Part shown: one piece after another, positions 8,259 to 59,398 of the stretch
Position numbering within the stretch: position 1 is the stretch's first letter
Layout of the letters: each line of letters starts with the position of its first letter
Position numbers and translations under genes: made by a program
Virus record (IMG/VR): IMGVR_UViG_2799112330_000002
Span: 282,107-346,106 of that record
DNA: 64,000 nucleotides
Source: a virus
Taxonomy: Duplodnaviria > Heunggongvirae > Uroviricota > Caudoviricetes
Reading direction: 5' to 3' (one strand)
The notes under the pieces: generated by a model
What the model was told of the DNA's origin: nothing
Database searches by the model: none
The model's input: the letters and a program-made list of their open reading frames with translations, nothing else

Positions 8259-8525
8259 ATGAGTCAAATGCCAGATAAGATTTGGTTACACAAAGATACC
8301 AAATATAGTACAGGGGATAAAGTGGTTGGTTATCAATATAAATTTTTAGCAGAAATAGAAGGGATTGAAAACTTTGTTGAGTACACTCGCACTGATGCCC
8401 TTATTGAAAATGTTTGTGCTTTCTTGAAAGACAGAATAGAACATGATTCTATTGACTATCCTATGGCTACAATGCATTTAATTGAAGATTTTAAACAATA
8501 TATTTATGAAAATAGCAAATCGTAA
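8259..8525 (+). CDS. hypothetical protein
   Basis: 88 aa ORF overlapping the smpB start. Confidence 0.7.
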   Translation: MSQMPDKIWLHKDTKYSTGDKVVGYQYKFLAEIEGIENFVEYTRTDALIENVCAFLKDRIEHDSIDYPMATMHLIEDFKQYIYENSKS

Positions 8526-8946
8526 AGCTAGATATAATTATGATGTCTTAGACACTTATACTGCAGGAATTGTTCTTGTTGGTTCTGAAGTGAAGTCTAT
8601 CAAGAATGGTAATGCAAATATTGGAGATGCTTATTGTTATGTTTCCATAGAAAATGAATTGATACTGAAGAATGCACATGTCTCAAAATATGATTCAGAT
8701 ATCTTTACAAATCATGATGAACTTAGAGAAAGAAAATTGTTGTTAAAGAAAAAAGAGATATTGAAACTAAAAGAGCAAGCATCTATTCCGGGTTATACAA
8801 TCATCCCACTTAAGCTTTATGTAGATCATGGGCTTATAAAAGTTCTTATTGGATTATGCAAAGGTAAGCATGATTATGATAAACGTAATGATATCAAAGA
8901 TAGAGACAATAAGAGAGAATTAGATAGAATAATAAAGAACTTCTAA
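8506..8946 (+). CDS. smpB: SsrA(tmRNA)-binding protein SmpB, phage-encoded
   Basis: NRKARYNY, AGIVLVGSEVKSI, RERKLLLKKKEI, GYTIIPLKLY, GKHDYDKR motifs; start moved to MKIANRK at 8506. Confidence 0.95.
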   Translation: MKIANRKARYNYDVLDTYTAGIVLVGSEVKSIKNGNANIGDAYCYVSIENELILKNAHVSKYDSDIFTNHDELRERKLLLKKKEILKLKEQASIPGYTIIPLKLYVDHGLIKVLIGLCKGKHDYDKRNDIKDRDNKRELDRIIKNF

Positions 8947-9264
8947 TTATGTCATATGAATAAATGGATTGTCTTTTAATGCTATTACTATGTTTTCAAG
9001 ACGTTCACATATTTGTCTAAATGAACCAACATCTTTTCCTGTCAAACTAAACCATTCACCAATAAGTCTTTGATTAGCAAAATGATTATGAAGAAGTTTT
9101 TCTAGTCTAAATGGATATTCTGTCTGATAATATGAAGAAATAAATAGTTCAGTAGAATTACCTGTCTGGAGTTTCTTCATTCTATCTTCAATATCTTTTT
9201 GTTTTGTGACACCTATCTTAAAAGAATCTGTACTAGTATCACATATTAAATAAACATATCCCAT
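8947..9264 (-). CDS. T5orf172/GIY-YIG superfamily protein
   Basis: GYVYLI...FKIGVT...RMKKLQTGN...LEKLLHNHF...GEWF. Confidence 0.85.
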   Translation of the reverse strand: MGYVYLICDTSTDSFKIGVTKQKDIEDRMKKLQTGNSTELFISSYYQTEYPFRLEKLLHNHFANQRLIGEWFSLTGKDVGSFRQICERLENIVIALKDNPFIHMT

Positions 9265-9286: not shown

Positions 9287-10087
9287 CTATTTTGCCCAAA
9301 TAGGTAATTGCTTCTTTTGATCAGCGTTCAAAAATAAAATATTACCAAATGCTCCATTTAGTTTACTGCTTGGAACCTGACTTATATGCCATTTGTCCAA
9401 AGATTTGAAACTACCATTATCAATTGCTGTCATACAATTAGCAAACATTGCTTCCATGTCTTTGACTTTTGATACATCCCAATTAGAAAGATCACAATCA
9501 AATGAACGACAATTATAAAACATAGTTCTCATATTTTTTACATTAGAAACATTCCATTTAGACAAATCAGCATTTAATGTTTTATCATGAGCAAACATAG
9601 AATTCATTAATGTAACTTTACTTACATCCCAATTCTCTAAACATTTTCCTTCAAATGAAGATCCATAAAACATCATACCCATATTTGTCACATTTGATAC
9701 ATCCCATCCAGAAAGATCAGAATCAAATTTAGAACAATGACTAAATAATGCTCTCATATTTGTCACATTTGATACATCCCATCCAGAAAGATCAGAATTG
9801 AATGATGTACAATTACTAAACATAGAATCCATTGTTGTTACATTACTTACGTCCCATAGTGATATGTCTATATTATGAGGATCAAGTCCATAAAACAATA
9901 AATTCATATTAGTAATTTTAGATACATCAATATCATTTAGATTAGCATTTTTACCTCTTTCTTTAAGTAATTCCCTTATCAATTTTTTTAGTTCAAATGT
10001 TTGTTCAGGAAAATAATTATAGTCTGGGCTAAGATTGTCTTTTGATATTCTGAATTTCTCTGTAATGAATTGATTTAGTTTCTTCAT
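9287..10087 (-). CDS. DUF285/BspA-like repeat protein with CTS-like leader (7 repeats, mostly 25 aa)
   Basis: MKKLNQFITE leader; WDVSNVTNM..MF repeats with a 75-bp period. Confidence 0.9.
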   Translation of the reverse strand: MKKLNQFITEKFRISKDNLSPDYNYFPEQTFELKKLIRELLKERGKNANLNDIDVSKITNMNLLFYGLDPHNIDISLWDVSNVTTMDSMFSNCTSFNSDLSGWDVSNVTNMRALFSHCSKFDSDLSGWDVSNVTNMGMMFYGSSFEGKCLENWDVSKVTLMNSMFAHDKTLNADLSKWNVSNVKNMRTMFYNCRSFDCDLSNWDVSKVKDMEAMFANCMTAIDNGSFKSLDKWHISQVPSSKLNGAFGNILFLNADQKKQLPIWAK

Positions 10088-10113
10088 ATATTAGATTAAC
10101 TAACTTATTTTAT

Positions 10114-10716
10114 TTATTCTTTATACCATGCAGGAGGATTATTTTCTAATGGTGATCCAAAAAACATTTTACACATATTGCTAACATGTCCTACATTCCA
10201 TCCAGAAATATCTCCATTAAATTTTGCATCCCAAAACATCCAATACATAGTATAAACTTTACTTGTATCCCATTTAGAGATATCTCCATTGAATTCTGAT
10301 TCTTTAAACATTTTAGCCATTTCTCCAACTTTGCTTACATTCCATTCAGATATGTCTCCGTTAAACTTTGATTTGGCAAATAAATAATGCATATTTTCAA
10401 CATTACTTACATCCCATTTAGATATATCTCCATTAAATTTAGAACAAGCAAACATACCTTCCATATCTGTAACATTACTTACATTCCAATCAGAGATATC
10501 TCCATCAAAATAAGTATCAGAAAATAAATAAGACATATCGGTTATTTCTGATGTATCTATATCATTAAGATCAGCATCATTACCTCTTTCTTTAATTAAT
10601 TTATCTACTATGTTATGTAATTCAAGTTTTGTCTTAGGATGATAATTATAATGATGTTCGAGATTATCTTTAGATATCCTGAATTTCTCTATAATGAATT
10701 GATTTAGTTTCTTCAT
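10114..10716 (-). CDS. DUF285/BspA-like repeat protein with CTS-like leader (5 repeats)
   Basis: MKKLNQFIIE; FNGDISKWDVSNV..M..MF repeats; SPLENNPPAWY cap. Confidence 0.9.
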   Translation of the reverse strand: MKKLNQFIIEKFRISKDNLEHHYNYHPKTKLELHNIVDKLIKERGNDADLNDIDTSEITDMSYLFSDTYFDGDISDWNVSNVTDMEGMFACSKFNGDISKWDVSNVENMHYLFAKSKFNGDISEWNVSKVGEMAKMFKESEFNGDISKWDTSKVYTMYWMFWDAKFNGDISGWNVGHVSNMCKMFFGSPLENNPPAWYKE

Positions 10717-10724
10717 ATATTATT

Positions 10725-11606
10725 TTACTTATATTTATACCATGCTGGTGGATTCTTTTCTAATGGGGAATAATCAAATATATCTTCCATAAATTGAACT
10801 TTTTTTACATCCCATTTAGATATATCTCCATTAAATTCTGATCTGTAAAACATATGATACATATCTTCAACATTACTTACATCCCATTGAGATATGTCTC
10901 CATTAAAATTAGATTTATAAAACAGATTTTCCATATTCTCAACATTACTAACATTCCATTGAGATATATCGCCATTGAATCTAGAATTAAAAAACATAGC
11001 TCTCATATTTGTAACATGACTTACATCCCATTTAGATATATCTCCATTAAACTTGGAATCCCAAAACATTCCACTAATATCTTCAACATTACTTACATTC
11101 CATTGAGAAATGTCATTATTAAAAATACTATGCATAAACATATTATCCATTTGTTTAACATTACTTACATCCCATTTTGATATATCTCCATTGAATTTAG
11201 AGTTTGTAAACATATATTCCATTCTTTCAACATTACTAACATCCCAGTCAGAGATATCTCCGTCAAATGGTGAATTAGCAAACATCCATACCATGCTTTC
11301 AACATTACTAACATCCCATCCAGAAATGTCACCATTGAATTGTTGTAATTTTGAGTTTCTGCCAAATTTATAATGAAATATATCAAACATACTTGTAATA
11401 TTTGAAGTATCTATATCATTAAGATTAGCATTTGGACCACGTTCTTCAATTAATTTATCTACTAATTTCTCTAATTCTTGTCTTGTTTCGGGGTGGTATT
11501 TATATTGATTAATGTTGTCTTTTGATAGTCGGAATTTCTCTGTTATATACCCATGTAAACGCGGGATCCTTTCAGCTTCTGAAATATAGTGGTTTAACTT
11601 TTTCAT
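10725..11606 (-). CDS. DUF285/BspA-like repeat protein with doubled leader (8 repeats, 24 aa)
   Basis: MKKLNHYISE-AERIPRLHGY-ITE; 72-bp repeat period. Confidence 0.9.
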   Translation of the reverse strand: MKKLNHYISEAERIPRLHGYITEKFRLSKDNINQYKYHPETRQELEKLVDKLIEERGPNANLNDIDTSNITSMFDIFHYKFGRNSKLQQFNGDISGWDVSNVESMVWMFANSPFDGDISDWDVSNVERMEYMFTNSKFNGDISKWDVSNVKQMDNMFMHSIFNNDISQWNVSNVEDISGMFWDSKFNGDISKWDVSHVTNMRAMFFNSRFNGDISQWNVSNVENMENLFYKSNFNGDISQWDVSNVEDMYHMFYRSEFNGDISKWDVKKVQFMEDIFDYSPLEKNPPAWYKYK

Positions 11607-11624
11607 ATATATTAATTATTAATT

Positions 11625-12365
11625 TTATTTATACCATGCTGGTGTATTTTTTTCTAATGGGGAATTATCAAACATATCTCTCATAGTTTTAATATTACTT
11701 ACATCCCATGCGGATATATCCCCATTAAACTGAGAATCAACAAACATATTTGCCATATTTTCAACATTTGAAACATTCCACATAGATATATCTCCATTAA
11801 ATTGTGATCCATAAAACATACCATCCATATATTTAACTTCACTTACATTCCATTTAGATATATCTCCATTGAATTTGGACTTTTCAAACATACCAGTCAT
11901 ACGTTCAACCTTACTTACATTCCATTGAGAAATATCTCCATTAAACTTAGATTTTGTAAACATATATGTAGCATATTTAACACTACTTACATCCCATTGA
12001 GAAATATCTTGATTAAATTTTGATTCTCTAAACATCCATGACATACTTTCAACATTACTAACATCCCATTTAAAGATATCTCCGTTAAATTTGGATTTAT
12101 AAAACATACTATTCATATCTTTAACATTACTTACATCCCAATTAGATATATTACCATTAAAATCAGATTCTTTAAATAAAAAAGACATATCGGTAATTTC
12201 AGAAGTATCTATATCATTTAGATCAGCATCATTCCCACGTTCTTTAATAAGTTTCTTTACTAATTCATCTAGTTCTCTTATTGTCTTAGGGTGGTATTTA
12301 TATTGATTAATGCTGTCTTTTGATATCCTAAATTTCTCTGTTATGAATTGATTTAGTGTTTTCAT
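11625..12365 (-). CDS. DUF285/BspA-like repeat protein with CTS-like leader (7 repeats)
   Basis: MKTLNQFITE; same repeats and C-cap. Confidence 0.9.
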   Translation of the reverse strand: MKTLNQFITEKFRISKDSINQYKYHPKTIRELDELVKKLIKERGNDADLNDIDTSEITDMSFLFKESDFNGNISNWDVSNVKDMNSMFYKSKFNGDIFKWDVSNVESMSWMFRESKFNQDISQWDVSSVKYATYMFTKSKFNGDISQWNVSKVERMTGMFEKSKFNGDISKWNVSEVKYMDGMFYGSQFNGDISMWNVSNVENMANMFVDSQFNGDISAWDVSNIKTMRDMFDNSPLEKNTPAWYK

Positions 12366-12385
12366 ATATATATTAATTATTAATT

Positions 12386-13075
12386 TTATTTACACCATTC
12401 TCTATACCATTTAGGTGGATTATTTTCTAATGGAGATTCATCAAACATCCATCTCTTCATTATAACATTATTAACATCCCATTTAGATATATCTTGATTA
12501 AAATTACTATGCTGAAACATTCCTTCCATATTTGTAACATTGCTTACATTCCATTTTGATATATCTTGATTGAATTTAGAACGATAAAACATACTATACA
12601 TATTCTTAACATTACTTACATCCCATTTAGATATATCGCCATTAAAAATAGCGCCAGCAAACATGTAACGTGTATTTTCAACATTACTTACATTCCATTC
12701 AGAGATGTCTCCATTAAATTGAGAATTTCTAAATAAATTATTCATTTCTTCAACATTACTTACATTCCATTCAGATATGTCTTGATTAAATGATGAGTCA
12801 GAAAACATCCAGTCCATATCTTTAACATTACTAACATCCCATCCAGAAATATCCCCATTAAACTTAGATTTTTCAAATAAATGAGACATATTAGTAATTT
12901 TTGAAGTATCTATATCATTAAGATCAGCATCATTTCCTCGTTCTTCAATCAATTTATTAATTAACTGTTTTAGTTCATCTCTTGTCTCGGGATGATAATT
13001 ATATTGATGCTGATAAGTTAGATTGTCTTTTGATAGACGAAATTTCTCTGTTATAAACTGACTTAACTTTTTCAT
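12386..13075 (-). CDS. DUF285/BspA-like repeat protein with CTS-like leader (6 repeats)
   Basis: MKKLSQFITE; same repeats and C-cap. Confidence 0.9.
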   Translation of the reverse strand: MKKLSQFITEKFRLSKDNLTYQHQYNYHPETRDELKQLINKLIEERGNDADLNDIDTSKITNMSHLFEKSKFNGDISGWDVSNVKDMDWMFSDSSFNQDISEWNVSNVEEMNNLFRNSQFNGDISEWNVSNVENTRYMFAGAIFNGDISKWDVSNVKNMYSMFYRSKFNQDISKWNVSNVTNMEGMFQHSNFNQDISKWDVNNVIMKRWMFDESPLENNPPKWYREWCK

Positions 13076-13087
13076 ATATATTAGATA

Positions 13088-13630
13088 TTAACTTATTTTT
13101 TTATACCATTTTGGTGGATTCTTTTCTAATGGACATTGTCTAAACATATCTTGCATATCTTCAACATTACTTACATTCCATTTTGATATATCCCCATTAA
13201 ATGGAGAGTTTTGAAACATTCTTAACATATCTTCAACCTTATTAACATCCCATTTAGAGATATCTCTATTGAATTTAGAATCCTTAAACATTCTATGCAT
13301 ATCTTCAACATTACTTACATCCCAATAAGATATGTCTCCGTTAAAGCTTGATAAACGAAACATATCTGTCATATCTTTAACTTTGCTTACATCCCATAAA
13401 GATATATCACCACTAAAATCAGATGCAAAAAACATACCAACCATACTTGTAATTTCAGAAGTATCTATATCATTAAGATCGGCATTATTACCTCTTTCTT
13501 TAATTAATTTTTTTACTAATTCTTCTAGTTCTCTTGCTGTTTTAGGATGATAATTATATTGATGCTGATAAGTTAGATTGTCTTTTGATAATCTGAATTT
13601 CTCTGTTATGAACTGATTTAGTTTCTTCAT
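13088..13630 (-). CDS. DUF285/BspA-like repeat protein with CTS-like leader (4 repeats), first gene of the array
   Basis: MKKLNQFITE; same repeats and C-cap. Confidence 0.9.
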   Translation of the reverse strand: MKKLNQFITEKFRLSKDNLTYQHQYNYHPKTARELEELVKKLIKERGNNADLNDIDTSEITSMVGMFFASDFSGDISLWDVSKVKDMTDMFRLSSFNGDISYWDVSNVEDMHRMFKDSKFNRDISKWDVNKVEDMLRMFQNSPFNGDISKWNVSNVEDMQDMFRQCPLEKNPPKWYKKIS

Positions 13631-13653
13631 ATCTTCAATATTATTTTAATATA

Positions 13654-13664
13654 ATTAAAAATAA
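13654..13664 (-). promoter_or_regulatory. motif B (TTATTTTTAAT), candidate late promoter of the DUF285 array
   Basis: 23 nt upstream of the start at 13630; recurs upstream of structural operons. Confidence 0.55.
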
Positions 13665-15234: not shown

Positions 15235-15867
15235 CTAATCAATGATTGTCCAGCATTCAAGTATTTTGTCAAAGTCTTGATATTTGATAATAGCATATCC
15301 ATTGTTACCATAAGACTTTCCCCAAGAGTTTCTGATGATAAAGCCTTCTTTGTTGTACCCAATGATTGCAATAGCATGTCCACCATGATTCTCTTTTCCA
15401 TTCCAGAACTCTGGTGACTTTCCAGTACTTCTTACAAACATACCACCAATGCATGGGCCGTTCAACAACAAAGCATGCTTAAGGGCTTGTATTGTCTTCA
15501 CCATTGCATAACGCTCTATCTTTATGTTCCCTTTGTCAGACATTACGCCATTCTTACGAAGGAAACTTAATGCTTCTTTGAATGACATACCATTATCACC
15601 AGGAATTGATCTTGCTGCATATATCTGTTTCTTGTCAATATGTATTGAACTATATATTCTTGTCTTAGAGTCAATATTGTAGTTCCAGTCTAAATGTGCA
15701 GCAATGGAATATGTAACACACATGTTAGTTGCTCCCTGATTTTCTACTTCTGGCAAGAACTCTATATAGTCATAAGATTCTGGAATGTCAAAGTTCTTTA
15801 TTTCTTTGAATTGCTGTTCTGTACCGTCTAATTTTGAAGGCGCCCATCCATAATTGATTTCTTTCAT
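15235..15867 (-). CDS. papain-like (C1 family) cysteine peptidase
   Basis: VENQGATNMC (oxyanion Q, catalytic C), GGHAIAIIGY (H), IIRNSWG..YG.NGY (N). Confidence 0.92.
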   Translation of the reverse strand: MKEINYGWAPSKLDGTEQQFKEIKNFDIPESYDYIEFLPEVENQGATNMCVTYSIAAHLDWNYNIDSKTRIYSSIHIDKKQIYAARSIPGDNGMSFKEALSFLRKNGVMSDKGNIKIERYAMVKTIQALKHALLLNGPCIGGMFVRSTGKSPEFWNGKENHGGHAIAIIGYNKEGFIIRNSWGKSYGNNGYAIIKYQDFDKILECWTIID

Positions 15868-15870
15868 AGA

Positions 15871-16221
15871 TTACTTTTTGATTCTTTTTGTTATCTTATA
15901 TTCGCCTTCATTCTTTTGAACTAATCTATATATATATTCTGTATTTCCTTGATATTTGATGTACATATACTCCTTGATCTCTGAACCATCATAGCCATCA
16001 TAAGCATATAACGAATGCCACTTTGCCAGATTGTTACTTATTCTGTCTGCTCTGCATATTGAGTCAAACTGAGCCTTTGTAAACTCTCTTTCATACTCAT
16101 TATACATAGACATCCCAAATATCATAGCATCATCTGGAAGCTCTATAAGCTGCTTATGAGAATGACAGGACATCAATACAGCTAAGCATAATACAAAAAG
16201 GAAATGAATTGTCTTCTTCAT
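15871..16221 (-). CDS. putative lipoprotein
   Basis: MKKTIHFLFVLCLAVLMS-C lipobox. Confidence 0.75.
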   Translation of the reverse strand: MKKTIHFLFVLCLAVLMSCHSHKQLIELPDDAMIFGMSMYNEYEREFTKAQFDSICRADRISNNLAKWHSLYAYDGYDGSEIKEYMYIKYQGNTEYIYRLVQKNEGEYKITKRIKK

Positions 16222-16277
16222 ATCTTTAACTACTAATATATTGTTATGTTATATATTATATAGTTAAAAATAAATTC

Positions 16278-45729: not shown

Positions 45730-45969
45730 GGTATAATATAATATTATAATCTATACTTATTTTTTATAATTAAAAATAATAATGATGATTAACTTTGTTG
45801 TTCTTTTGATTGAAAAATTTCATCGTTAAAACTATTTTCTAATCATAATAATTTATCTTAAAAATTATATATATGAAACAAATTAATTCTTTTTAACATT
45901 TATTGAATTGAATATTAATATTAGCTATGTCTATTTTATATATTATAAGAAAATATATTATCTATAGAT

Positions 45970-51687: not shown

Positions 51688-51886
51688 AGTAATAGATGTA
51701 GAATTAGCTGGTGAAGAATGGATCAAAGAATCCGTTGGTGAATCCAAATATTGGACTAATAAAGTCATTGATAAGTTTATTGCTGATGGGTGGAATATAA
51801 GGGATTGGAAGATTACTAATCAGGATATTCTATTTATTCTTGAAAAACCTTAATTATTTTTAATTAAATATTAGTTTAATTTAATA

Positions 51887-52168
51887 ATGAGAAGATTTAC
51901 AAATTTTATAATGGAAACGAAAGGTGATCCTATTGATGAACAATGGATTAATGATGATAAACCAGTAATGACTAAAGATGGGCGTCCAGCAATTATTGAA
52001 AAGGTCAATTATGATGAAGTTCCAAATATTATAACAGGCAAAGTAAAATGGAATGACACATTACTTGATTATGAATGGGATGATTCCGGTATATGTTTGA
52101 AAGCATTAGACAGATTAGGCAATCCTAAAAAGCCAGATGAAGCAGATAACTTAGTAAAAGGAGCATAG
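51887..52168 (+). CDS. hypothetical protein with CTS-like leader
   Basis: MRRFTNFIME; KPVMTKDGRP motif; motif B at 51854-51864. Confidence 0.75.
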   Translation: MRRFTNFIMETKGDPIDEQWINDDKPVMTKDGRPAIIEKVNYDEVPNIITGKVKWNDTLLDYEWDDSGICLKALDRLGNPKKPDEADNLVKGA

Positions 52169-57670: not shown

Positions 57671-58876
57671 ATGAAAAATTTTTCTAATTTTAATGAAGCA
57701 AAGGATTCTAAATCTTTGAATGTACAGAAAGACACAATTAACTATATTTCTGCAGATGATTTGAAGAAATATTTGGAGATTGCATCCAAATTCATTTCTG
57801 ATGATGCTAAAGAAGTTATCAACTGGTTGATTATCAATAATGAAACATATCTTCAAGATTTGGATCCACAGTTGCAAGCAGACAATGCATTAGAATATTT
57901 CTACAACAAGGGTCTACCATCAGATCCACATTTGAAAGAACTTTATCAGGCAATTACTCGTATTAGTAGAAATGAACGTTTGTTAGAAATCCCAGTATTT
58001 CAGACAAAGGAACAATTTGAATCAATTATTACAAAGAAGATTTCACCAGATGAGATTCTTCTTGATTTGAAGTCAGAAGCAGGCAGAAACAAAATTGCCA
58101 AGCAGTATGAGCCATTGATCCATAAGATCATCAGACAGTGGTTCAACAAGTCATCTCTTGGTTATGACGATCTTATTTCTGTGGCTTATGAAGCCCTTAC
58201 TTATGCTATGAATTCATTTGGTAAACGTAAAGTACGTGATGCTAATGGAAAATGGGTTGAAGCAGAAAAGGAAGAGAACAGTAAGTCAGCAAACTATTCA
58301 TTTACTCAGTATGCTGCTTATTGTATCAATAATGGTATCAAGGATGAGATCAAGCATAAGTCACATCTTGTAAGAGTTCCTGCATCACAGCAGAAAAAAG
58401 AAAGAGATCAGAAGGGACATAACACTAAGTCATATGCGGTATCTGGATCTCAGTATGTTGTGCATGACAAAGATGGAAAGGGAAAGACATTATTTGATTT
58501 CATTGACAATGGAGAAAATGGCAACAAAGGTATTGATCAGGAAGATCTCAATATGCTATGGAAAACAGTCTACAGTAAGTTGAATGACAACTTTAGTGAA
58601 AGAGACCTTAAGATCTTCTATTCATTATTTGGTCTTAACGGTTATGCACAGGTTAAAGCTAAGAAACTGGCTAAAGACAATGGTATTGCAGAATCATCAA
58701 TTACAGCTATCAAGATGAAAGTTATCAAATTCATCAAGAATGACAAGACATTATGGATGGCATTCAATGAAATATTGAATATTGTTGGTGAGTCTAGACA
58801 AGAAAAATATAATGAAGAAGATCAGTATTCTGAAGCTCATAGTATGCCAAATATATATAATATGAGAAGTCTATAA
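57671..58876 (+). CDS. phage sigma-70 family RNA polymerase sigma factor with N-terminal extension and CTS-like leader
   Basis: region 2 (QYEPLIHKI...YDDLISVAYEALTYAMNSF; FTQYAAYCINNGI); region 4 HTH (FSERDLKIF..LFGL...KLAKDNGIAESSITAIKMK); leader MKNFSNFNE. Confidence 0.85.
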   Translation: MKNFSNFNEAKDSKSLNVQKDTINYISADDLKKYLEIASKFISDDAKEVINWLIINNETYLQDLDPQLQADNALEYFYNKGLPSDPHLKELYQAITRISRNERLLEIPVFQTKEQFESIITKKISPDEILLDLKSEAGRNKIAKQYEPLIHKIIRQWFNKSSLGYDDLISVAYEALTYAMNSFGKRKVRDANGKWVEAEKEENSKSANYSFTQYAAYCINNGIKDEIKHKSHLVRVPASQQKKERDQKGHNTKSYAVSGSQYVVHDKDGKGKTLFDFIDNGENGNKGIDQEDLNMLWKTVYSKLNDNFSERDLKIFYSLFGLNGYAQVKAKKLAKDNGIAESSITAIKMKVIKFIKNDKTLWMAFNEILNIVGESRQEKYNEEDQYSEAHSMPNIYNMRSL

Positions 58877-59398
58877 ATGAAATCATTTAATAATTATATA
58901 AAAGAAGAATTTGAACTTTATGGAGTAAAGAATCTTGAAGTTGTTTTTGATTGTAATCCAGAACAGAAATTTCTAGAATTTCAAGTACCGGAAACATATA
59001 ATGAAGACAGTTTCCAGATCTATGTTCAAGACGTATTTCTATCTCAACTCCCAGGTGATCCAAAACTTGCTGAGCATTTCTTTGGAAAGAACAGAAAAAA
59101 CATTTTTGATGTATATTTTGTTTATGACAAATATGAAAAGGATGATGAATCAACAAGTGATGATACATTTGAGTTTATGACATCTTATGATTCCAAATCA
59201 AATGATGAGAAATATGCTTATATAAGAGTTGAAAAGATGCAATATGTAATTAAGTTTGATGTGTTTGAATATAAATGTGAAGATGTGAATGATACAAAAG
59301 ACATCTTAGTAGACATATTCAAGACATGTGAAACAAATACAACAAACAAATTCCCATTGAAATTAGTACTTAATGAGGATGAAATGAAATATATTTAA
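58877..59398 (+). CDS. acidic hypothetical protein with CTS-like leader
   Basis: MKSFNNYIKE; starts right after the sigma stop. Confidence 0.75.
   Translation: MKSFNNYIKEEFELYGVKNLEVVFDCNPEQKFLEFQVPETYNEDSFQIYVQDVFLSQLPGDPKLAEHFFGKNRKNIFDVYFVYDKYEKDDESTSDDTFEFMTSYDSKSNDEKYAYIRVEKMQYVIKFDVFEYKCEDVNDTKDILVDIFKTCETNTTNKFPLKLVLNEDEMKYI

Follow-up and report, generated by a model that had tools for sequence, protein, structure and literature searches.

The locus described here raises the question why six neighbouring genes of a large phage open with the same short peptide, and where their products would be sent by it. The genes occupy positions 9287–13630 of a 64,000-nucleotide window, meaning the whole stretch of DNA that was analysed, which equals positions 282107–346106 of the 410,106-bp contig C82 (GC 29%) within a 1.9-Mb metagenomic bin. 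All six open reading frames (ORFs) were recovered on the minus strand at the coordinates given by a first-pass annotation, and their products are repeat proteins of the DUF285 family. C82 belongs to a jumbo phage. Its head genes include those for a T4-type portal, an S77 protease and a Gp23-family capsid protein, a tail sheath and a baseplate wedge protein are encoded as well, and a family-B DNA polymerase is present. Judged by the capsid protein, its relatives are Sphingomonas/Sphingobacterium phage PAU, Tenacibaculum phage pT24, Chryseobacterium phages MA9V-1/2 and the Lak megaphages. The best-supported reading, to which we assign a probability of roughly one half, is that the N-terminal leader would act as a T4-type capsid-targeting and processing tag, with the DUF285 solenoids as head cargo. 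The tag is modular: otherwise unrelated proteins of this one phage carry it, as is the case for the capsid-targeting sequence (CTS) of T4. The locus thereby touches on the question which proteins jumbo phages deliver and why they keep huge paralog families, and if the tag works as in T4, the injected proteins of a large uncultured phage could be listed from its genome alone.

The leader and the proteins that carry it

The gene starts had initially been described as a T4-like leader of ten residues with the pattern MK(K/T)L(N/S)(Q/H)(F/Y)I(T/I/S)E. This motif is found in all six proteins (MKKLNQFITE, MKKLSQFITE, MKTLNQFITE, MKKLNHYISE, MKKLNQFIIE and again MKKLNQFITE), while the proposed length had to be revised, the conserved long leader comprising 19 residues. 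From 49 copies its consensus reads MKKLNQFI[TIVA]EKFR[LI]SKDN[LI]. Leu4 is present in 45 of the 49, Phe or Tyr at position 7 in all, Ile8 in 48, and E10, K11, F12 and R13 are invariant, position 9 (the "x" of I-x-E) being the most variable. The proposed resemblance to the T4 CTS thus holds at exactly those positions that are critical in T4, where targeting depends on residues 4 and 7 and processing on residues 8 and 10 (PMC9026906). Within about ten residues, hydrophobic side chains at 4 and 7 are followed by (L/I)-x-E at 8–10; T4 IPII and IPIII, which start MKTYQEFIAE, fit the same pattern, and IPI has a propeptide of 19 residues ending in ITE, with Ala following the cut. Of 111 long leaders from at least five phage lineages, 108 have Glu at the acidic position, three have another residue and none has Asp, even though Asp and Glu are equally common in the proteomes of these phages. 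In T4, Asp at position 10 blocks processing and leaves targeting intact (PMC9026906). The strict use of Glu points to a Glu-specific protease and not merely to a charged helix. The doubled leader with two I-x-E sites (MKKLNHYISEAERIPRLHGYITEKFR), which had been reported for one array member, is real and recurs in two other paralogs; the doubled form MKKLN(H/Q)YISEAER-x6-YITEKFRLSKDN is thus present in three paralogs, one of them in the window, and also in metagenomic homologs.

Downstream of the leader, the assignment to DUF285 is firm, with all six array proteins matching Pfam PF03382 (E-values from 1e-51 to 3e-79, 174–263 bits at a gathering cut-off of 25). Besides the 19-residue N-terminus they have in common the DUF285 N-cap Y.YHPKT..EL..L..KLI.ERG..A.LNDIDTS.IT.M and the C-terminal motif SPLEKNPPAWYK. 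The number of repeats was also borne out: the anchors are spaced by exactly 24 residues (25 in the copy at 9287), giving 4, 6, 7, 8, 5 and 7 units. In 152 repeat units taken together from 46 paralogs, a near-invariant framework F-N-G-D-I-S-x-W-[DN]-V-S-[NK]-V-x-x-M-x-x-M-F-x-x-S-x alternates with variable residues, as had been noticed in the six copies, and positions 17, 18, 21 and 22 of the unit are hypervariable (entropy 3.4–3.9 bits). By their sequence, these positions would fit a binder repertoire; they give no indication of its targets. AlphaFold2 predicts the 200-residue paralog 5 with a mean predicted local distance difference test (pLDDT) of 95 as a regular repeat solenoid (pLDDT at least 93 in the solenoid), preceded by the leader as a separate helix of residues 4–17 (pLDDT about 70), a coil and the N-cap helix of residues 30–44. 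A Foldseek search of the PDB with the model of an array protein returned no significant match, the weak ones all being leucine-rich repeat (LRR) proteins. Searching PHROGs placed the six proteins in families of "unknown function" only and found nothing for most neighbours, while megablast of the array against deposited phages gave zero matches. Bacterial DUF285/BspA-like LRR proteins belong to the same repeat family and are usually secreted or lipid-anchored. The phage proteins differ from them in having a phage-specific leader in place of a signal peptide: hydrophobic runs do not exceed three residues within the first 30 and no N-terminal Cys is present in any of the six, confirming the lack of signal peptide and lipobox, so that the export signal typical of bacterial surface members is missing.

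The array is one of about ten on C82, which the first-pass annotation had not noticed, with a total of 46 DUF285 paralogs, all of which bear the leader (89 DUF285 matches contig-wide). Five further ORFs begin with the same 19 residues and contain neither a DUF285 domain nor any Pfam family. Divergent tags escaped a position-weight matrix of the 49 long leaders, which proved overly strict, and the regular expression M-[KR..]-x-[LIF..]-x-x-[FYHW]-[ILVM]-x-E was applied at the N-terminus instead. It matches 78 of 515 C82 genes, most long leaders included, so that at least 33 further genes carry a short, 10-residue CTS-like tag; genes were called here simply as longest ORFs, and the counts of tagged genes are approximate. 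The pattern is rare elsewhere: none of the 1,465 ORFs encoded by the remaining contigs of the bin has it, five other jumbo phages with DUF285 genes have it once in about 1,400 genes, and on 20 kb of T4 it picks exactly IPII and IPIII. A NUDIX hydrolase, a nucleoside-diphosphate kinase (NDK) and a HAD hydrolase are among the tagged proteins of C82. Since their Pfam domains start at residues 18–22, the tag together with a short linker constitutes an appended extension. For the sigma-like factor at 57671–58876 on the plus strand (phrog_351) the earlier assignment of a leader does not hold, as it starts MKNFSNFNE, with Asn where I or L is needed.

Head genes, Motif B and related phages

If the leader is cleaved as in T4, a gp21-type protease is expected on the same genome, and the annotation had suggested looking for one. 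We found it as the first ~180 residues of a 565-residue ORF (C82:82910-84607), the remainder of which is an acidic coiled-coil scaffold. The S77 domain matches PF03420 (1.6e-11) and phrog_207 (1.5e-41) and was aligned to 5JBL and to native T4 gp21, where His76 and Ser130 coincide with the catalytic His and Ser; both residues are unchanged throughout nine relatives. With a profile of the full protease-scaffold alignment the PDB yielded nothing, while the protease domain alone led to T4 gp21. About 25 tagged genes form a block at 63.5–82 kb of C82 that adjoins this gene, followed by the Gp23-type capsid gene and the sheath gene, an order that agrees with the T4 order 67/68-21-22-23. The scaffold half is rich in potential cleavage sites, with 29 [ILV]-x-E in ~290 residues (across the proteome, [IL]-x-E occurs at a background of 1.4% per residue), and contains 6–9 tandem copies of the 12-residue unit NW[IV]xEEFAPEVQ, near-identical in all nine relatives examined, whose core W-I-T-E-E-F resembles the leader core F-I-T-E-K-F. 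These units may be sites of cleavage, of cargo docking or of capsid binding. In the capsid protein four [ILV]-x-E sites fall within residues 1–41 and none follows until 185; the same distribution is seen in T4 gp23, which is cut at LTE-65.

The promoter-like Motif B, an exact 15-mer (TTATTTTTAATTATA), connects the array to the structural genes. On C82 it occurs in 22 exact copies where 0.18 are expected, 21 of the 22 lying 18–56 nucleotides upstream of a same-strand ATG. The statement that Motif B precedes the array as it does the structural operons could be confirmed, with exact copies at both sites of the window and an enrichment far above chance. It also heads the protease-scaffold gene, the region of the capsid gene and several giant structural ORFs of 1,490–2,865 residues, and 64% of the long-leader genes, compared with 21% of the other genes, lie downstream of Motif B in the same strand block.

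The arrangement is retained in relatives. IMG/VR contigs with a 50–58% identical protease-scaffold protein are organised likewise, the tagged genes lying upstream of the protease. The long-leader consensus is phage-specific (EKLHLNKD, EKLKISK or EKLNLSK) and yet common to unrelated cargo within one phage, which is expected if the leader matches a single phage-encoded receptor or protease. Of the 46 DUF285 genes counted in a complete 223-kb phage (GC 39%), at least 16 start with MSLS.FITERLKITS. Almost none of the 26 leader-bearing genes of a complete 413-kb phage (GC 43%) encodes a DUF285 protein; these begin M(E/K)ILKSEQYI.EKLNI(K/Q)PVSK, continued by DRL, and many of them share the cargo motif ...EPEVDDKTKQFIEDNNLVWN, representing a different paralog family. 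DUF285 copies in giant virus metagenome-assembled genomes (GVMAG) of IMG/VR start directly at the N-cap without a leader. A DUF285 match in a Lak megaphage was discarded, as it lies inside a larger frame without a leader.

PAU (GenBank JQ362498) is a cultured relative, its capsid protein being 32% identical to that of C82. Around its portal, protease and major capsid protein (MCP), 13 genes begin MK[TS][LI]xxL[YF]E. One of these is gp152, annotated as the scaffold; the others are gp131–133, gp142–146, gp149, gp150, gp153 and gp154, of which gp142 and gp154 are labelled "internal capsid proteins". The capsid protein itself is N-terminally processed: sequencing of its N-terminus showed a reduction from 585 to 520 residues (PMC5646251), and the cut, with 65 residues lost, falls within one residue of L62-M63-E64. 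In an alignment of the two capsid proteins this site is not conserved in C82, and the cleavage specificity of C82 cannot be read from it directly. The PAU leader differs from that of C82 in having nine residues with L-[YF]-E. PAU moreover encodes protease and scaffold separately, and its 42 kb that were examined showed no DUF285 array.

Set beside characterised systems, the C82 tag shares with the T4 internal proteins a short leader with hydrophobic residue 4, aromatic residue 7, I/L at 8 and Glu at 10 on unrelated cargo (Mullaney and Black 1996, reviewed in PMC9026906 and PMC3012670). The genome also encodes a protease of the gp21 family, a capsid protein of the Gp23 family and a portal of T4 type, arranged in T4-like order, and the cargo is diverse and fast-evolving. 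In contrast to T4, about 84 genes are tagged instead of three to four, the leader of the DUF285 proteins is 19 residues long, bipartite and most conserved after the Glu, the protease is fused to the scaffold, and the cargo consists of acidic solenoids or enzymes where that of T4 is small and basic. The jumbo phages phiKZ, 201phi2-1 and SPN3US likewise have an S77-type protease cutting after Glu and many head proteins or paralog families (PMC5694885, PMC9026906). The SPN3US proteins gp53 and gp54, with conserved N-termini on diverged paralogs, have been proposed to be CTS-like (PMC5694885, PMC9026906), and the redundant cleavage sites of giant-phage propeptides recall the doubled leader of C82. 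However, the phiKZ group is a different, nucleus-forming clade with virion RNA polymerases, in which 8–19 proteins are processed at S/A-x-E and propeptides mostly exceed 100 residues, while the leaders studied here have I-x-E and 10–19 residues. The T4 CTS and giant-phage propeptides as such are already known (PMC9026906, PMC5694885); our literature search found no paper on a CTS-like tag over dozens of genes, on a bipartite long leader or on tagged DUF285 arrays.

Proposed head cargo and competing explanations

We propose a model in which the DUF285 solenoids, small proteins of a 46-member family, would be made in the cytoplasm and recruited to the prohead core during head assembly by the amphipathic leader helix (residues 4–17). 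The S77 prohead protease of gp21 type would then cut the aromatic-I-x-E site after Glu, and the mature solenoids, in which each repeat exposes four hypervariable positions at the surface, would be carried in the head and reach the host cell together with the DNA. Targeting, cleavage, packaging and injection of the tagged proteins are what we infer. If this is true, the capsid-targeting principle, which is known for three to four proteins in T4, would scale to dozens of cargoes including diversified binders, and the leaders would be natural means for loading foreign proteins into Bacteroidota phages. A wider version appears doubtful to us, namely that all of the ~80 tagged proteins are loaded into the head and injected, with the 46 hypervariable binders as a germline repertoire against host defence or other host proteins, NUDIX, NDK and HAD as nucleotide enzymes, and KFRLSKDN as a second signal that might, for example, sort cargo to a head sub-compartment or set the order of ejection.

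Several observations weigh against head cargo of the T4 kind. About 16% of the C82 genes are tagged, housekeeping-type NDK and HAD included, which exceeds any known internal-protein set. The mature array proteins, of 170–270 residues, would be acidic (isoelectric point 4.7–5.8 compared with 9.0–9.7 for the T4 internal proteins) and do not resemble small, basic, DNA-associated mature proteins of the T4 type. The conserved E10-K11-F12-R13 and S15-K16-D17-N18 straddle and mostly follow the proposed cut and are kept on unrelated cargo, whereas in the T4 model residues 1–10 suffice and there are few P' determinants. In two S77-positive jumbo phages, one of them equally AT-rich, the short tag is absent; the protease alone therefore does not imply a tag system. 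The co-occurrence of S77 with the leader speaks in favour of the model: of the viral records with DUF285, 8 of 11 that have the leader or a variant of it (4 of 4 near-complete ones) also contain S77, compared with 0 of 4 that lack it; this sample, however, is small and phylogenetically non-independent and includes incomplete records. DUF285 genes without a leader are common in other viruses, and Pseudomonas phage OBP has its DUF285 repeats in a protein of 1,713 residues encoded between virion structural and baseplate genes. The idea of the first-pass annotation that a surface-protein fold was converted into cargo is an evolutionary guess. A few genes without a structural appearance, e.g. an NrdG-like ORF, are likewise headed by Motif B, so that its assignment as a "late" element is tentative. 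Regarding PAU, the basis of the "internal capsid protein" labels is not stated and may itself be the N-terminus, and a literature search for virion proteomics of PAU, pT24 or MA9V found none.

Some of these points would be accommodated if the DUF285 proteins formed an intracellular repertoire for host interaction that is never packaged, the helix serving as a docking, assembly or stability tag for a phage hub or compartment, or as a site of regulated processing. Large expansions of this kind are familiar from giant eukaryotic viruses, where ankyrin, LRR or DUF285 families have multiplied; like C82, the giant virus AaV (Kratosvirus quantuckense) shows a large paralog expansion, its 38 DUF285 genes, which have no assigned role, lying in repetitive parts of the genome (PMC10720644). 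NDK, NUDIX and HAD enzymes are normally cytoplasmic, and the high share of tagged genes, the invariant EKFRLSKDN after the putative cut and the acidity of the proteins fit such a role too. On the other hand, the tagged genes cluster near the portal and the protease-scaffold-MCP genes in C82, in its IMG/VR relatives and in PAU, where the scaffold is tagged as well, the Glu is strict with Asp never found, and the arrays share Motif B with structural genes. We therefore regard an unpackaged repertoire as unlikely, albeit one to be taken seriously. Somewhat less credit is due to the proposal that the helix stays uncleaved and anchors interchangeable LRR-like binding modules on the outside of capsid, tail or fibres, giving a multivalent coat of adhesins that binds host or mucus. 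DUF285/BspA-type LRR proteins are typically named surface proteins, the OBP protein sits in a virion module, Goslar virion proteins have an N-terminal module in common to which LRR or carbohydrate-binding domains, proposed to act in host recognition, are joined (preprint 10.64898/2026.04.21.720040), PAU has a mop-like tail-fibre array (PMC7824862), and the promoter motif of the DUF285 array is of the structural type. Yet where the Goslar DUF7941 proteins have a folded N-terminal anchor domain, the N-cap is preceded here by one lower-confidence helix of merely 14 residues, on small proteins with no oligomerisation or fibre domain; the same tag on enzymes and on the PAU scaffold marks internal or transient components, and it bears a protease-site signature with strict Glu. 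Adhesins hence seem rather improbable to us.

The shared N-terminus could finally be a by-product of duplication or cassette recombination, a 5' end kept for shuffling or translation initiation with no function of the peptide, given that the paralogs arose as tandem duplicates and the AT-rich spacers between them are similar. This explanation is largely refuted and retains hardly any probability. Leader codons vary freely, with Arg13 written as both AGR and CGN, and because of this abundant synonymous variation selection must act on the leader peptide and not on the DNA; a repeat or recombination element at the DNA level is thereby ruled out as the cause of the conserved gene starts. The motif is moreover kept on unrelated genes with different DNA and in phages of 29%, 39% and 43% GC. 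AT-richness was rejected as a cause for similar reasons, an equally AT-rich, S77-positive jumbo phage having no such N-termini and long leaders being present in the phages of 39% and 43% GC.

Coordinates and neighbouring genes

Table 1. Leader-bearing genes and Motif B copies; positions refer to the window unless C82 is given
Feature	Position	Strand	Description
Motif B, array copy	13650..13664	-	exact TTATTTTTAATTATA, 19 nucleotides before the first ATG of the array
DUF285 paralog 1, first gene of the array	13088..13630	-	180 residues, 4 repeats, long leader MKKLNQFITEKFRLSKDNL
DUF285 paralog 2	12386..13075	-	229 residues, 6 repeats, leader MKKLSQFITEKFRLSKDNL
DUF285 paralog 3	11625..12365	-	246 residues, 7 repeats, leader MKTLNQFITEKFRISKDSI
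DUF285 paralog 4	10725..11606	-	293 residues, 8 repeats, doubled leader MKKLNHYISEAER-IPRLHG-YITEKFRLSKDNI with two I-x-E sites
DUF285 paralog 5	10114..10716	-	200 residues, 5 repeats, leader MKKLNQFIIEKFRISKDNL
DUF285 paralog 6	9287..10087	-	266 residues, 7 repeats of 25 residues, 6 Cys, most divergent, leader MKKLNQFITEKFRISKDNL
Motif B, second copy	45765..45779	-	exact; upstream of the minus-strand structural operon of the window (start 45729)
Unrelated ORF	51887..52168	+	93 residues, short leader MRRFTNFIME; Motif B with 1 mismatch at 51854-51868
Unrelated ORF	58877..59398	+	173 residues, short leader MKSFNNYIKE; downstream of the sigma-like gene
Tagged NUDIX gene	C82:34174-34623	-	directly after the T4-type portal gene
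Tagged HAD-hydrolase gene	C82:70778-71422	+	short CTS-like leader as N-terminal extension
Tagged NDK gene	C82:199928-200335	-	last gene of a three-gene DUF285 operon

With respect to the contig as a whole, C82 was binned together with a bacterium (7% contamination) and should not be taken for host DNA. Both of its ends (1-60 and 410047-410106) run into tRNA-like sequence, the assembly having probably broken within a tRNA array.

Directly downstream of the last DUF285 gene and on the same strand lies a gene with a T5orf172/MUG113 domain (8947-9264, minus strand, E-value 1e-15, GIY-YIG-like), which may belong to the same transcription unit as the array or may be the remnant of a mobile element. 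Beside the array, a full-length homolog of SmpB, the partner of tmRNA, is encoded at 8482-8946 on the plus strand (PF01668, E-value 5.5e-54); ARAGORN detected no tmRNA or tRNA gene in the window. On the other side of the array, the minus-strand ORF 15871-16221 has a lipoprotein-like N-terminus (MKKTIHFLFVLCLAVLMSC) and a copy of Motif B with one mismatch upstream at 16259-16273, and the ORF that follows it (15235-15867, minus strand) contains, judged by eye, putative papain-like cysteine-protease motifs.

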